Shown here piece after piece: positions 54,416-63,700 of a stretch of 64,000 bases of DNA (position 1 is the stretch's first letter; every line of letters begins with the position of its first letter). The notes below the pieces were generated by a model that did not search any database, was not told the origin of the DNA, and worked only from the letters and a program-made list of their open reading frames with translations. Made by a program: the position numbers and the translations under genes. Origin of the DNA: Minisyncoccia bacterium (lineage in GTDB: Bacteria > Patescibacteriota > Minisyncoccia > Phycocordibacterales > GWA1-40-21); the NCBI GenBank assembly GCA_049287185.1, contig JBAQFI010000012.1:54659-118658 (forward strand). Direction: 5' to 3'.

Positions 54416-55051
54416 ATGTCTTTTAGTCTAGAAAATATGCATCAAAAAATATTATCAAAAAAATTATTGCAGCCATTTGTTATTCTTTTTGGGATGATCA
54501 TTTTCGTAATTCTACTTCTTTATATTATTCCACAAATATCAATTGAAAATGGTGACAGGAATGTCCTTAATGGTAATAATATAGTTGAAGAAATTGATAA
54601 TAGTTTGGCATTACCTATTCGACTCAAAATTCCAAGTTTAGGTATCGACGCTCCCGTGGAGTCACTTGGCCTCACAACAGATGGATCAATGGACGTCCCA
54701 AAGAGTCCAGACAATGTTGGTTGGTTTGAACTCGGACCATATCCAGGAGAAATTGGAAGTGCTGTCATTGCCGGGCACTATGGTTGGAAGGATAATCTAC
54801 CTGCGGTGTTTGATAATTTATCTAAACTAAAGAAGACAGACAAAATATATGTTGAGGATAAAGAGGGAATAATCACTACTTTTGTCGTCCGCGAGATTCG
54901 TTCATTTGGTGAGAACGATGAGACATTAGATGTATTTAATTCTACAGATGGAAAAGCACACCTTAATCTAATCACTTGTGAAGGTATTTGGAATGCGTCA
55001 AATAAAAGTTATTCCAAAAGACTTATAGTGTTTACTGATAGGGAATTATAG
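54416..55051 (+). CDS. sortase (transpeptidase)
   Basis: N-terminal TM; LKIPSLGIDAPVE; catalytic His in AGHYGW, Cys in LITCEG, Arg downstream; immediately after its LPNTG substrate. Confidence 0.8.
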   Translation: MSFSLENMHQKILSKKLLQPFVILFGMIIFVILLLYIIPQISIENGDRNVLNGNNIVEEIDNSLALPIRLKIPSLGIDAPVESLGLTTDGSMDVPKSPDNVGWFELGPYPGEIGSAVIAGHYGWKDNLPAVFDNLSKLKKTDKIYVEDKEGIITTFVVREIRSFGENDETLDVFNSTDGKAHLNLITCEGIWNASNKSYSKRLIVFTDREL

Positions 55052-55110: not shown

Positions 55111-55301
55111 GTGGACCGCACCGGACACGCTTTGCATTCTCCCTCGACTAAAACCTCGTCGCCACTCGGTTTTGTCTGGTCACGCCCTCACATAATTTTC
55201 TACTAAAAATCATTGGCTCCGGGCTTCGAGTCCGGACACGAGTGATGCCTATCACTCGCTTGCAGTCCATACAAAAAAATCGCTAATCGCGATTTTGTTT
55301 G
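55111..55301 (-). other. conserved ~190-nt tRNA-Ala(GGC) 3' trailer element ending in a direct repeat of the tRNA 3' end (att-like); possible ncRNA or integration remnant
   Basis: Minus-strand reading: terminator-like hairpin aaatcgcgattagcgattttttt, hairpin gagtgat-aggc-atcactc, conserved blocks ggactcgaa, cggagccaat, agtaga, atgtgag, ccagac, gacga, agtcgagggaga, then aagcgtgtccggtgcggtccac repeating tRNA positions 59-73. Confidence 0.5.
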
Positions 55302-55374
55302 TGGACCGCACCGGACTCGAACCGGTCACCTCTTCCATGCCATGGAAACGCTCTACCAGATGAGCTAGCGGCCC
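55302..55374 (-). tRNA. tRNA-Ala (anticodon GGC), no encoded CCA
   Basis: Reverse complement GGGCCGC-UA-GCUC-AUCUGGUA-GAGC-G-UUUCC-AUGGCAU-GGAAG-AGGUG-ACCGG-UUCGAGU-CCGGU-GCGGUCC-A; G3-U70 Ala identity pair. Confidence 0.85.
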
Positions 55375-59265: not shown

Positions 59266-59688
59266 CTAATTCTTTGGTGACTCACCTTTAGCAAAAAGGT
59301 AGTATTGCTTATCAACATTTCCGATATGATTGATCCACCACTCACCAATGTATTTCTCAGCCTCTGCCAGTAAAAGATTCTTGTCCACACCAGCTGCCAC
59401 CTTTTCTCTATATCCAGTAAAATATTTTATAAAATCGTGGTGCTTTTCTTTGTGCTCTGTAATATATGGATACTGGATACTTTCCATGTATTTTTCCTCA
59501 TAAGCAAGGTGATCGTTGATGTAGTCGTTAAAGAAACTCAAAATTTCAAGGAGAATAGAATTGTCAATTTTTTGATTAACTAAGGCATCTATAACTTTAT
59601 TTAATTGTGCTAGCAAATGTTGATGTTGGGAATCAATATGTTCTTCACCGACAGACATCTCTTTTGTCCATTCAAATTTGTATTGCAT
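59266..59688 (-). CDS. bacteriohemerythrin
   Basis: FEWTKEMSVGEEHIDSQHQHLLAQLN, HLAYEEKYM, EHKEKHHDF iron-ligand His/Glu pattern. Confidence 0.8.
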   Translation of the reverse strand: MQYKFEWTKEMSVGEEHIDSQHQHLLAQLNKVIDALVNQKIDNSILLEILSFFNDYINDHLAYEEKYMESIQYPYITEHKEKHHDFIKYFTGYREKVAAGVDKNLLLAEAEKYIGEWWINHIGNVDKQYYLFAKGESPKN

Positions 59689-59832
59689 AAATCTAATTTA
59701 ATCTAATAATATATTTAAATATTAGCACATATTTAGATATTTTGTCTGTTATAGCATGCCCACTATACATATATAATATATATGTTATTGTTATGGTAGA
59801 AGTGGCTCCTGAAGCTCGTTTGTTTTATTATA

Positions 59833-60678
59833 ATGACCAAATTATTTTTAAATGAGCACCGTTGTCAGTGTAATAAACTCTTATTTAAGGGTGTCATTTT
59901 GGATGGATCACTGGAAATTAAGTGTAAAAGATGTGGACGGATGAATGAAATAGGCTCTATTAAATCTTGCGATGATACTAATAATTATCTACTAATTATT
60001 AATGACAGTGGACAGATTTCAAATGCCAGTGATTCAGCCTGTAAAATTTTGAATTACAGTCGGGAAGAACTGATTGGAAAGAGTTTTACAATCATTAACC
60101 CTACTTTGCCAAAAGAAATTGGTGAGAAATTTTTTGGTCCAAGGTCAATTCTAAATGAAAAAAATTATTTAAAATTAGATACTTTTCATCAGACAAAAGA
60201 CGGAATTATGTTGCCAATTACTGTTTTGTTAAAATTACACAAAACAGGTGGTAATAGATTTGTTTTGTTGACTGCCGAGCTCAAAAATCCGGTATTAGAA
60301 ACCGAATCAAATAAACAGAATCTTGTAAAATCGGAATTTTCAAAAAATGCATGTGATTTTTATTTTGACCTGGATAAAAGTGGTACAGCCGAGTTCATTT
60401 GCCCGGCGATGAGAAATTTCTTTGGATTTTCCCTAAATGAAAACATCGGTACTAATTATATGAACTATATTCCCATCATGATGATAGAAGAGGTTGAAAA
60501 AACATTTAGATATTTTTCATCTAAAAAACTACCTTACAAAATCAATGACATGATCATTTTTAATTCAAAGAAGGAAAAAATCCATTGCGAGCTATATTTT
60601 ACGCCGAATTTTAACGGCTATAGTGAATTTATTGGCTATAGGGTAATAGGTTGGGTTAAAAAAGATGTGGATAAATAA
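59833..60678 (+). CDS. Com-type (Mu Com-like) zinc-ribbon fused to tandem PAS-like domains
   Basis: N-terminal EHRCQCNKLLFKG...LEIKCKRCGRMNEI (CxC...CxxC); then SNASDSACKILNYSREELIGKSFTIINP and a second PAS-like region. Confidence 0.55.
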   Translation: MTKLFLNEHRCQCNKLLFKGVILDGSLEIKCKRCGRMNEIGSIKSCDDTNNYLLIINDSGQISNASDSACKILNYSREELIGKSFTIINPTLPKEIGEKFFGPRSILNEKNYLKLDTFHQTKDGIMLPITVLLKLHKTGGNRFVLLTAELKNPVLETESNKQNLVKSEFSKNACDFYFDLDKSGTAEFICPAMRNFFGFSLNENIGTNYMNYIPIMMIEEVEKTFRYFSSKKLPYKINDMIIFNSKKEKIHCELYFTPNFNGYSEFIGYRVIGWVKKDVDK

Positions 60679-60778
60679 TAGCTTTTCTTGACAATAATAC
60701 TCTGATATAATTAACCTATAAATTTTGAGACTCCTGAAGTCCGTAACCTTTTTGGTTCGGATTTTTTAATATAATTTA

Positions 60779-63700
60779 ATGTATCAATATTTTTATAGCA
60801 AAAATTTACTTATTGTTTTTTTCCCACTCGCATTATTTTTCCTTGTACCGCACCTAGCTCAAGCAGCAACTTGTACTGCCAGTAACGGAAACTGGAGTGC
60901 AATTGGTACTTGGTCTTGTGGGCATGTACCTTTGGCAGTAGATGATGTCGTTATTCCAAATACCAACGGTCTAAATGTCATCGTTGATACTACCGCGGTG
61001 GCATCTTCAACAACTTTTACGGGTGGAAACCGAGCTAATGCTATAAATATTAGTGGAACAAATTCCTTAACTGTAACAAATGCTGTTAGAATAAACGCTC
61101 CAACTGGAAATGTTACAAAAGGAATAACGGTTGGAACAGGGACTTTAACGGCTGGTAGTATATATATTACCTCTGGAAGCGCTGGTGGAAGAATTTCACA
61201 AATTTCAGTCTCAACTGGAACAATAAATTGTTCAGGAAATATTACATTTGCTGGTACTGCCTCTGCAGCGAGAATTACTTTTACTGGCGCAGGTATACTC
61301 AATATTGACGGTGCTAATGGTATTGGTCCGGGCGGAACTTTTACTGCTGGAAATAGTACAGTTAACTTTAATTCTGCTAGTGCTCAGATAATCGGTCCTT
61401 ATAATTATTATAAATTAACTACATCTGGAGGTAATACTAAAACTACTTCAGCGGCTATGACAGTTAGTAATAATCTAAATATAGGCTCAGGTACTAACTT
61501 TGTCACGGGAGTAACAAATACCTGGACCTTATCAGTTACTGGCACAACGACTATAGCTGGAACACTTACACTAGCAAACACAGGTAATAAAACTTTTTCA
61601 AATGACGTTATATTAAATTCTGGTAGTGTTTGGAATGAGACAGGTAATGCGTCCATTACTATCAATGGCAACATTGTAAATAATGCCACTACTTTTACTG
61701 CCAATGCCGGTAGTCATACATTTAGTGGGTCAAATAAAACTTTTAGTGGATCAACTCCTATTTCAATCCCCGGCACTGTTATTTTTGCTGGAGGAGCTTA
61801 CACAAATAATGGAACATTTTCAGCAATCACCTTGACCACAATGACTGCTGGAGCAGTTTTTACAAATAACGGTACTACCACTGTTTCTACAGCTTTGTCA
61901 GGTAATGGTGGATTTACTCAAGGTTCAACAGGTGTTTTAAATTTTGCTAGTACAACGATTGCTATCACAACTTTTTCAGCAAATGTTCCTAGTAACACGG
62001 TGAACTACAATGCCAATGCACCACAAACAGTTAGAGCAACAACTTATAATAATCTTACGTTGAGTGGAGGTGGTGTCAAAACTCTTACAGGCGTCACAAC
62101 TATTGGAGGTAACTTTACTTTAACAGGATCATCTACAGCCACAGCTTCTTCCGGTTTAACAATTGGAGGAAATGTTTCTATTGGTACAGGAACAACTTTT
62201 AATGGTGGAACAGCACTCGACCATAATGTGGCAGGAAATTGGTCCAATAGCGGAACTTTTACGCCATCAACATGTACGGTTAATTTTAATGGGGCAAATC
62301 AATCAATAAATAATGCAAATACCTGGTACAATCTTTCAATAACTGGAACTTCTTCCCGAACCGTTACTTTACAAAGTGGCGCACTTCAGACAGTTTTAAA
62401 TGGTTTAACTTTGTCAGGAGCTTCTGAACAACTTTTAACTCTTGTTCCGTCAATCTCACTGACAAAATGGCAACTTAGTGCACCTATTATCCAAAGTGTA
62501 ACTTATACTTCTCCGTCATATTCTGATGCTAGTAGTGGAACCGCTGTTAATGCCACTAGTACAACTAACTCTGATGGCGGAAATAATGTTAATTGGAATT
62601 TCGCTTCGAACCCAGTTCCAACAATAGTCTCTATTTCTCCAACTTCTAAGTATGTTGGTGATGCTGAATTTACCCTAACTGTTTATGGAAGTAATTTTTT
62701 AGCTAGTTCGACGGTAAAAATAAATGGAAATGATAGAACAACAACTTATTATTCCTCATCTACAATTTTGACTGCTATCATTCCATCCTCGGATTTATTG
62801 TCTTCTACCACTCTTATAGTCACGGTTTACAACCCAACTCCAGGCGGTGGTGAAAGTAATTCACAAAATTTATATGTCAGTCCAGTTCCTTTGATTCCGA
62901 CCAAGATAGTTATTGCTAGTGCCACTGACGGAACTATTGATTCGCCAAGCTTGGTAACAATTGAGGTTAGAAACGTTGACGATCTATTAGTTAGTAGCTT
63001 TCAGGAAGATGTGACTCTGCAAGCGTCTGGTTTAGCCACTGGTGATGGACTTATAAATATTATTAGTGGTATTGGCACCACAACGATTTCTGATGAAAAT
63101 ATTGAAACAGTAAGTTTGTCATTGGAAGATACTGAAGGCACAGGATTAAATGTTTCATCAACTGATAGCATTGATTTTGGACCAGGAAATTCCGCAACAT
63201 TAAATATTGTAAGCTCCAGTACAGAGATGGTGGCTGGAACACTCCTACCCGTGACCGTGTCTCGTGAGGACCGTTTGGGGAATATGGTAACTACTGGCAG
63301 TGAGACATTTTATTTATATAGTAACTCATTAAGTCCAGCACATAAATTTTATAATGCTGCCAGTGGAGGAGATATTGTTACAACAATAATTATTCCTGAT
63401 GGAACTTCGACAGCCACAACTTGGTACTATGACGATAAAGTGGGCACACCAGGCATTGAAATTTCCGATAGTGATATAGCGCCAGATGGTAATACAGGTA
63501 TTGATGATGCAATTCAAGAAGTAACAGTAACCAGTGCTCCGGCTTCAACCTTATTTATAAGTAATCCAGGTGATCTGATAGCTGGAGAAAGACTTGGTTA
63601 TGAAATTAGTCGTCAGGATCAGTTTGGTAATGAATCTGATAACGGAACACTACCTGTTTACCTTTATCATTCCGGAATAGCAACATCAACAATTTTTTAT

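Follow-up and report, generated by a model that had tools for sequence, protein, structure and literature searches.

What is a zinc ribbon like that of the phage Mu protein Com doing in front of two PAS domains in a bacterial chromosome? The question is raised by a gene at positions 59833-60678 (forward strand) of a 64,000-nt stretch of contig JBAQFI010000012.1, from a Minisyncoccia bacterium (Patescibacteria). We will call this whole stretch the window. The gene encodes a protein of 281 amino acids, it is flanked on both sides by copies of a small RNA hairpin that resembles the target of Com, and the copy on the downstream side overlaps a terminator-like hairpin that precedes the gene for a giant secreted protein. 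Our best explanation as a whole, to which we give a probability of about 0.62, is that the 281-residue protein is a signal-responsive RNA-binding regulator that antiterminates the transcription of the giant gene.

A Com-type zinc ribbon joined to tandem PAS domains

The gene and its parts are as follows.

59833-60678, forward strand: gene for the Com-ribbon + PAS + PAS protein, with an ATG start and 281 codons for amino acids (from the list of open reading frames [ORFs] and the sequence)
59851-59952, forward strand: Com-type zinc ribbon, residues 7-40, with Cys11, 13, 31, and 34 (Pfam PF10122); the proposed RNA-binding module
59971-60282, forward strand: PAS domain 1, residues ~47-150 (Pfam PAS/PAS_9, E ~1e-9; predicted local distance difference test [pLDDT] score of 75-95)
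60346-60663, forward strand: PAS-like domain 2, residues ~172-277 (from predicted structure and fold search only)

This domain composition is close to certain. A preliminary description of the locus, made from the DNA alone, had quoted the 281-residue sequence and the coordinates of its ORF, and both match exactly. The protein is 100% identical to a database entry named [quoted passage not shown] (MAG stands for metagenome-assembled genome). That description took the N-terminus to be a Com zinc ribbon, and this holds up. The family Zn_ribbon_Com (PF10122) matches residues 7-40 with 24.1 bits and E = 2.5e-5, which is above the gathering score of 22.9 by a small margin, and it is the only zinc-ribbon family in Pfam to match the protein, so no generic ribbon family competes with it. 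When the protein was compared directly to Mu Com by BLASTP (using a Com sequence that agrees at 100% of positions with the record for phage Mu), residues 10-36 were 57% identical over 28 amino acids, which include the whole metal-binding core. A search of the PDB by sequence with the ribbon alone gave no match. R10, N14/K15, and R33 align with basic residues that have been proposed as the RNA-binding surface of Com (PMC6483171). The four cysteines are at least 90% conserved among 39 homologues and are invariant in 18 diverse ribbons, and the ribbon motif, HRCxCGKLLLKG...EIKCKRCG, is the best-conserved part of the PAS-PAS protein family. The spacing of CxC-x16-CxxC that had been reported for the cysteines is wrong by one residue: they are arranged as C11-x-C13-x17-C31-xx-C34, or CxC-x17-CxxC. 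Compared to Mu Com (CxxC-x16-CxxC), the first knuckle has lost one residue and the loop between the knuckles has gained one.

The rest of the protein does form two PAS folds, as had been thought. The first is found by sequence profiles, namely PF00989 (39.2 bits, cut-off 22.6), PF13426 (38.4 bits, cut-off 27), and TIGR00229 (38.8 bits, cut-off 22.9, E = 8.5e-10). Residues 160-281 match no sequence profile in Pfam or NCBIfam, and the second PAS fold emerges from structure prediction. An AlphaFold2 model, built on 39 homologues and with a mean pLDDT of 79, shows the PAS topology beta-beta-alpha-alpha-alpha-beta-beta-beta in this region, mostly with a pLDDT of 80-97. In Foldseek, about 230 columns of the model align to proteins with tandem PAS-A and PAS-B domains: the match to BMAL1 (4f3l_B) has E = 2e-13, and those to ARNT, DosP, PpsR, and MmoS have E ~1e-13. 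Weak matches by sequence to MmoS and FixL span just part of the PAS domain. No CAT, PRD, or ANTAR domain was detected in the protein with Pfam and NCBIfam.

The architecture was thought to be undescribed. We found no description of it in the literature, but it is not a one-off. About 40 clusters of homologous proteins, of 272-297 amino acids, are 41-75% identical to the window protein over its full length; all of these are from Patescibacteria-type MAGs or from metagenomes, and the databases label them just “PAS domain S-box protein.” There are also sister architectures: a ribbon with one PAS domain (loci L031, L035, and L037) and a receiver (REC) domain with a ribbon (L036). The ribbon occurs alone as well (L039 and L066). 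Because the ribbon is attached to different inputs, it behaves as a portable output module. The protein with the receiver has 182 amino acids (L036:4587-5135): the receiver domain is N-terminal (Pfam E = 4.9e-19), and the Com ribbon forms the C-terminus. The gene is on contig CAZRJD010000004.1 of a MAG labelled as Saccharibacteria, and the sole copy of the hairpin element there is about 4.5 kb off and on the opposite strand. Judging from its domains, this protein would have a two-component output domain of a previously undescribed kind.

A profile of the ribbon alone finds 617 protein clusters. The best 120 of these are all stand-alone proteins of 41-84 amino acids, mostly from Patescibacteria, and are labelled “phage FluMu protein Com” or “Com family DNA-binding transcriptional regulator.” The CxC variant of the first knuckle is common in stand-alone Com-like proteins of Patescibacteria and of Alphaproteobacteria. 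For example, proteins of 59-77 amino acids from Ancylobacter, Pleomorphomonas, Chelatococcus, and their relatives (L050, L051, L056, L061-L063, and L068) have the CxC knuckle in the form RCRCGALLFRA...EIKCRRCG. Because the Alphaproteobacteria use it too, we consider CxC to be an old variant of the Com family rather than a peculiarity of the candidate phyla radiation (CPR). The window protein itself is, as far as its sequence tells, a chromosomal and sensor-coupled form of the Com ribbon.

A conserved RNA hairpin on both sides of the gene

The sequence CTCCTGAAG occurs twice around the gene, 29 nt before the ATG and again 53 nt after the stop codon. Related loci share the element AGA-RRYU-C-NN-GA-ARYY-C, a hairpin of the form GA-[4 bp]-C-NN-GA-[4 bp]-C. 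The two copies in the window are these.

59802-59817, forward strand: upstream Com-type hairpin, GU-GGCU-CCUGA-AGCU-C (matches to the pattern and to a covariance model); it ends 16 nt before the ATG
60727-60742, forward strand: downstream Com-type hairpin, which we call P1, GA-GACU-CCUGA-AGUC-C (matches to the pattern and to the covariance model); it lies 49 nt past the gene

We scanned the whole window with a covariance model of the element (R1) with the filters off. The top match, at 60724-60747, has 26.4 bits and E = 3.4e-6, and this copy was in the training set; the second, at 59799-59822, has 14.1 bits and E = 0.05, and this copy was absent from the training set. The rest of the 64 kb gave noise, so there are only two credible copies, and both flank the ribbon-PAS gene. 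Another 13 loci likewise have an upstream copy, at 19-66 nt from the start codon. Across 69 sources (654 kb), a pattern scan gave 70 matches on the sense strand and 13 on the antisense strand, clustered immediately upstream or downstream of ribbon genes. Because this pattern partly forced pairing, we ran a second scan that put no constraint on the stem positions. Fully paired stems then made up 47 of 111 sense matches versus 1 of 72 antisense matches and 0.6 per shuffled sequence, while the partly paired background was equal between the strands. The 47 fully paired stems are of 11 types, which include the compensatory variants GACU/AGUC, GGUU/AACC, GUCU/AGAC, and GGAU/AUCC. Nine of them contain G.U pairs, which would be A.C on the other strand, and A.C was never seen.

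The same result is obtained if copies are selected by their location alone, that is, in the 80 nt before a ribbon gene or the 200 nt after it, which amounts to 2.6% of the sequence. There, 36 of 36 are fully paired, versus 8 of 40 elsewhere (Fisher p = 3e-14). Over about 35 related loci, the element keeps to one strand and is without exception fully paired where it adjoins a ribbon gene. Every cell of the 36 stems is paired, and three of the four pairs show double-sided compensatory changes (18 cells). The covariation is 0.434 versus 0.258, and none of 500 shuffles was as high; if the register is slid, then pairing drops to 14-64% and there is no compensation. The loop C-NN-GA and the flanks GA and C are conserved on the sense strand only, and the loop varies from 5 to 7 nt. 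We considered whether the element could instead be a direct repeat of a GARGCUC heptamer, and we rejected this: GAGACUC/GAAGUCC and GAGGUUC/GAAGCCC are poor repeats and perfect hairpin pairs. Rfam has no match to the element at either gathering or permissive thresholds, so it is not a described RNA family.

The element does resemble the known target of Com, and its consensus had been obtained by comparative genomics before it was compared to that target. By systematic evolution of ligands by exponential enrichment (SELEX), electrophoretic mobility shift assays (EMSA), and selective 2'-hydroxyl acylation analyzed by primer extension (SHAPE), Com was found to recognize 5'-CC(N)2-3GAG-3' in the loop of a hairpin of 3-4 bp (Nowacka et al. 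2019, PMC6483171). Com prefers the hairpin over a duplex, and the GA dinucleotide and the first C of the loop are protected upon binding (PMC6483171). The native Mu 19-mer, GA|AUGC|CUGCGA|GCAU|CCC, lies 13 nt before the GTG of mom. Compared to GA|GACU|CCUGA|AGUC|C from the window, it has the same flanks, the same stem length, the same loop signature, and a similarly low stability (-2.4 kcal/mol for the authentic Mu hairpin versus -2.2 kcal/mol for P1 alone); the sole difference is in the closing pair, which is C-G in Mu and U-A in the window.

The element travels with the ribbon

The element accompanies the ribbon not only in the PAS-PAS proteins but also in the proteins with one PAS domain and in the stand-alone form. 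We also searched in the other direction, by scanning metagenomes for AGAGGCTCNNGAAGCCC followed by a T-run, with no information about proteins. This gave 80 loci. An iterated hidden Markov model of the ribbon finds a ribbon ORF in 41 of these, which is on the strand of the element in 40 of 41 cases, and the element typically starts 2-900 nt past the end of the ribbon ORF. Of the DNA in these loci, 137 kb is no farther than 1 kb from an element, and this part contains 44 ribbon ORFs; the remaining 282 kb contains none. Given this two-way genomic linkage and the homology to Com, we think it quite likely that the ribbon binds the RNA hairpin.

Some of the loci that were selected by the element alone are of phage type (L081, L096, L112, L124, L143, L142, L126, and L073, judged by PHROGs matches of their genes), and in these the element usually lies just after a gene for a stand-alone Com ribbon of 45-80 amino acids. 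The genes that follow the stand-alone ribbon and the element are often phage late genes: portal (4 loci), the large subunit of terminase, a head scaffolding protein, and a late transcription regulator. In one locus where no ribbon was seen, the element is followed by an endolysin gene. These arrangements of genes suggest Com-type control of phage late operons.

The downstream hairpin overlaps a terminator-like hairpin

What would binding to P1 do? The following features lie between the ribbon-PAS gene and the next gene.

60703-60711, forward strand: a possible extended -10 box, TGATATAAT, after the stop codon and before P1 (read from the sequence, and weakly supported)
60740-60767, forward strand: an intrinsic-terminator-like hairpin, UCCG(U)AACC-UUUUU-GGUUCGGA, followed by a U-tract; some nucleotides of the 5' arm of this hairpin also belong to the 3' arm of P1
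60779-64000, forward strand: gene for a secreted protein of >1073 amino acids, in an open frame that runs off the end of the window; the probable regulated target

The minimum free energy (MFE) fold of the terminator in the window is -13.7 kcal/mol (z = -3.2), and if P1 is enforced, this becomes -9.1. This layout recurs. A GC-rich hairpin and a T-run follow 45 of 55 non-redundant copies of the element, and in most cases the 5' arm of that hairpin begins within the 3' arm of P1, at a depth of 3-6 nt. In 42 of the 55 copies, the MFE fold uses the 3' arm of P1 to build the terminator hairpin; P1 itself is present in just two of the MFE folds, and the average cost of enforcing it is 6.2 kcal/mol. 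With its sequence GGCU, the 5' arm of P1 imitates the terminator's own 3' arm (GGGCUU), and both contest the same AGCC. Because the 3' arm of P1 also serves as the base of the terminator's 5' arm, the two structures are mutually exclusive, and this is the classical arrangement of an antiterminator. We propose that the downstream P1 is both the antiterminator and the binding site for the protein. The upstream copy in the window has no terminator after it.

We envision that the N-terminal ribbon would recognize P1 in the nascent RNA by its GA flank, 4-bp stem, C-NN-GA loop, and C flank. Without help, the terminator would prevail and transcription would stop before the gene for the giant secreted protein. 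With the protein bound, P1 would be stabilized, the terminator would be blocked, and RNA polymerase would read through. The tandem PAS domains would set the ribbon's competence to bind, whether by sensing a ligand or redox state, by dimerization, or by docking to the PAS kinases and receivers that some genomes encode in this operon. The second copy, in the gene's own 5' leader (59802-59817), implies autoregulation.

The preliminary description had called the protein a ligand-controlled post-transcriptional regulator. The post-transcriptional part of this is strongly and independently supported by the conserved, strand-specific, covarying hairpins of Com type that flank the gene and its homologues. 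The overlap of the hairpin with an intrinsic terminator makes antitermination of transcription a likelier output than translational activation of the Mu kind. We would say that the outcome is probably antitermination, with some room for doubt. As for the PAS domains, which could serve in signal sensing, in dimerization, or in docking to co-encoded kinases and receivers, we consider the odds of genuine control by a ligand to be about even.

The copies of the element in the loci that we compared (the two in the window, L001, and L014-L017) fall into two sub-classes. Ahead of a ribbon gene, almost every copy has the AGCU-C-A form (GAAGCUCA), and these copies have no strong terminator; just past a ribbon gene, most copies are of the GGCU/AGCC-C-G type and have a terminator. 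There are also tandem arrays of 2-4 copies with a spacing of 33-76 nt, some with a terminator for each copy (L005:8505-8600, L011:932-1660, L012:5903-6000, L017:5902-6010, and L033:5531-5680). These arrays could reflect cooperative or multi-gate control, or binding by a PAS-mediated dimer.

Giant secreted proteins downstream

The protein encoded after P1 in the window has a signal peptide (...HLAQA|ATCTASNGNWSAIGTW) and is rich in Thr, Ser, Gly, and Asn (16% Thr, 12% Ser, 11% Gly). It belongs to no Pfam family and is probably a surface protein or adhesin of the CPR. Homologues of it also follow the element in L013 (62% identity over 466 amino acids) and L015 (65% over 155 amino acids). In 17 of 24 loci with PAS fusions, a large ORF comes first on the downstream side; these ORFs have ~300 to >1900 amino acids and are often cut by the end of the locus, and nearly all of them have a signal peptide or a membrane anchor and are alike in composition. 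They are not one homologous family, an idea that we rejected: they form a class by composition and architecture, and only some are true homologues.

Among 10 neighborhoods that we examined, the downstream gene on the same strand encodes either a giant protein, mostly without Pfam families, or a PAS histidine kinase with 1-2 regulators that consist of just a receiver domain. The kinase and regulators are directly downstream in 3 of the 10, with a large protein after them in 2 of those 3; they are absent from most loci, including the window. Where a kinase and receivers intervene, extra copies of the element lie immediately 5' of the giant gene (L001, L005 with three in tandem, and L015). Multiple copies in these operons suggest several gates per operon.

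The window as a whole is ordinary chromosome and not prophage, with genes for a sortase, tRNA-Ala, TspO, a flavoprotein, and hemerythrin. These neighbors include the following.

54416-55051: sortase gene
55301-55374, reverse strand: tRNA-Ala, one of a pair with GGC and UGC anticodons
55720-55793, forward strand: tRNA-Ala, the other of the pair
59266-59688, reverse strand: bacteriohemerythrin (TIGR02481, E = 1.7e-30), divergent from the PAS gene

The two tRNA-Ala genes (GGC and UGC anticodons) are divergent, about 350 bp apart, and adjoin the sortase gene. We considered a functional link between the ribbon-PAS protein and the divergent hemerythrin, by way of O2 or redox state, and rejected it: the pairing is kept in no other neighborhood that we examined, as the upstream neighbors are conserved in 0 of 10.

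Alternative explanations

Could the outcome of binding P1 be something other than antitermination, such as control of translation or of mRNA stability, termination, or repression? Mu Com is a translational activator of mom (PMC6483171), and the upstream copy in the window, 16 nt from the ATG and with no terminator, might seem suited to such a role. At this upstream site, GCUC of the element pairs with GAGC in codons 7-9, which encloses the start codon, and such a fold recurs in about 8 of 14 loci. In the window it is not significant relative to shuffled sequences (z = -1.2), and GAGC recurs because Glu-His codons force it, so we reject Mu-like masking of the start codon here as recurrent but lacking statistical support. 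At the downstream site, the masking of a translation initiation site as in Mu does not occur: the terminator hairpin excludes the next start codon, which in the window (ATG at 60779) is 12 nt past the U-tract and at other loci is 30-150 nt away. The conserved partner of P1 is a GC-rich hairpin with a U-tract, which is a terminator and not a mask for a ribosome-binding site. We also note that a U-run directly follows some of the upstream copies (L016 and L025), so that P1, if stabilized by the protein, could itself terminate. All told, we consider an outcome other than antitermination to be rather unlikely. The results at the two sites imply that the protein is a member of the Com family that is probably not the functional equivalent of Mu Com.

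A more different view is that the protein binds DNA: a PAS-mediated dimer would place two ribbons on the duplex operator RRYT-N5-ARYY, near its own promoter and the downstream promoter. The element is a short inverted repeat, as an operator would be, but its fully paired sites have a strand bias of 47:1, and it keeps its asymmetric C-NN-GA loop and its GA and C flanks on the sense strand only. The G.U pairs in 9 of the 47 stems would be mismatches in DNA, and a loop of 5-7 nt would be poorly tolerated by a rigid dimer on B-DNA. AT-rich boxes that resemble -10 sites do lie upstream of many copies, but their distance from the element varies, and the element is fused to the terminator. It is true that DNA-binding regulators with PAS domains are common, that the structural matches to our model include bHLH-PAS factors and PpsR, and that NCBI names the stand-alone relatives as DNA-binding. 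Nevertheless, the prototype Com was found by experiment to bind an RNA hairpin with the same motif (PMC6483171). Given the G.U pairs, the strand bias, the variable loop, and the fusion to the terminator, we disfavor a double-stranded palindrome, and we view an operator in DNA as improbable. It seems very doubtful to us that the hairpin is unrelated to the protein, that is, that it is a lineage's flavor of terminator or a repeat, and that the ribbon is structural and the protein is a PAS partner of an adjacent two-component system. The tandem copies in L005 and L011 do look like repeats, about half of the element-selected loci have no detectable ribbon, and a kinase and receivers directly follow the gene in 3 of 10 neighborhoods. 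But the kinase and receivers are missing from most loci, and the element stays with the ribbon in four architectures and in phage genomes as well, with 44 ribbon ORFs against none by distance and 40 of 41 on the same strand. The element also matches the known target of Com, and the sole two credible copies in the window flank the ribbon-PAS gene.

Several observations weigh against antitermination by a ribbon-RNA complex, which we nonetheless prefer. The stem of P1 has just 4 bp, it is closed by U-A where the Com SELEX products have an “invariable” C-G, and our counts of covariation ignore kinship. The four short strands of the ribbon are modelled by AlphaFold2 with moderate confidence (pLDDT 50-72), ligand-binding residues were found in neither PAS domain (residues for heme, flavin, or LOV chemistry were not examined in depth), and the NCBI name for the relatives, “Com family DNA-binding transcriptional regulator,” says DNA. 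A scanner for consensus terminators did not call the hairpin in the window, whose stem is bulged, and a scan for consensus promoters called no canonical promoter in the intergenic region (TGATATAAT was not called because it has no -35 box at 16-18 nt). Because neither was called, the structure could be the gene's own terminator. Finally, 39 of the 80 element-selected loci have no ribbon in the DNA that we fetched. Some of these are short contigs, some are probable chance matches in high-GC DNA, and some are phage, where the regulator may be elsewhere.

Significance

Very few regulators can be recognized in CPR bacteria, whose giant surface proteins are believed to attach the cells to their hosts. 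For four decades, Com has been seen as an oddity of a single phage operon. Our evidence points to a cellular, sensor-coupled branch of Com with an identifiable RNA target. If this is correct, then Com ribbons would be among the few identifiable gene regulators in the reduced genomes of the CPR. The giant proteins are likely to be the host-attachment machinery of these episymbionts. The predicted switch lies directly before genes for giant surface proteins, so it would be a testable handle on how episymbionts control their attachment. Also, since the element precedes genes for portal, terminase, and endolysin, phages may control their late genes in a way that has not been described.

More broadly, Com ribbons might be a large unrecognized class of antiterminators that bind RNA hairpins, in which stand-alone proteins of ~45-80 amino acids gate phage late operons (portal, terminase, lysis) and the fusions to PAS, PAS-PAS, or receiver domains have been domesticated by the CPR/Patescibacteria as signal-responsive switches for giant surface proteins. 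We would not bet strongly for or against this. If the sensor-coupled branch of Com is real, a new fold would join the short list of signal-responsive antiterminators, and the pair of a compact ~35-residue protein and a 16-nt RNA, with clear rules of specificity, would be attractive for synthetic biology.

Comparison with known systems

Sensor-coupled antiterminators are well known. In BglG, LicT, and SacY, a CAT domain that binds ribonucleic antiterminator (RAT) hairpins is joined to PRD domains, and in the ANTAR regulators, such as AmiR, NasR, and EutV, the ANTAR domain is joined to REC, NIT, PAS, or GAF domains. In these systems, a sensor-coupled protein stabilizes a weak hairpin that overlaps the 5' arm of a terminator, which leads to read-through into the downstream genes. 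The locus that we describe shares this logic: the target hairpin overlaps the 5' arm of the terminator and the two structures are mutually exclusive. Also, as in the BglG/LicT/SacY and ANTAR systems, there are leader and intercistronic copies in one operon, and the receiver-ribbon protein of L036 parallels the REC-ANTAR proteins. The parts are different, however. The RNA-binding fold is a zinc ribbon of ~35 amino acids rather than the beta-sandwich dimer of CAT or the three-helix bundle of ANTAR, and the target consists of one stem of 4 bp capped by a C-NN-GA loop rather than a RAT or the dual-hexaloop target of ANTAR. By analogy, then, the window protein would resemble the CAT and ANTAR antiterminators in how it works, and it is a member of neither family.

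The Com ribbon with its hairpin, the PAS domains, and protein-dependent antitermination (LicT/RAT and ANTAR) are all known already. What appears to be undescribed is their combination, the predicted level of control, and the distribution across cells and phages. In the literature that we searched, a corpus that lacks most subscription journals, we found no Com-PAS architecture, no Com-type antitermination, and no such regulation of giant CPR proteins.

The kinship with Mu Com lies in the zinc-ribbon family and in the conserved basic residues that flank the cysteines, and the layout is similar as well: as at com-mom, the hairpin is directly 5' of a second, inhibitory hairpin and shortly ahead of the regulated gene, and the gene for the regulator is upstream of its target. 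The motif of Mu Com is bipartite, with an upstream half of GAG(N)2CC, and its hairpin adjoins the one that inhibits the translation of mom (PMC6483171). Mu Com is a stand-alone phage protein of 62 amino acids with a disordered tail and a CxxC first knuckle; in contrast, the window protein has 281 amino acids, two PAS domains, and a CxC knuckle, and it is encoded in a chromosome. Also, the inhibitory hairpin is a mask over the start codon in Mu, while here it is an intrinsic terminator, so the predicted control is at the elongation of transcription and not at the initiation of translation. This brings to mind a system from human immunodeficiency virus (HIV). The discoverers of the Com target note that the loop CC(N)2-3GAG is nearly that of the hexaloop of HIV TAR, and that a block to expression is lifted by a zinc-binding protein rich in cysteine (PMC6483171). 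There is no homology to Tat, and the Tat-TAR mechanism is eukaryotic (recruitment of P-TEFb), so this is just an analogy. But if the ribbon-PAS protein does act on elongation, then the system in the window would be functionally nearer to Tat than Mu Com is.

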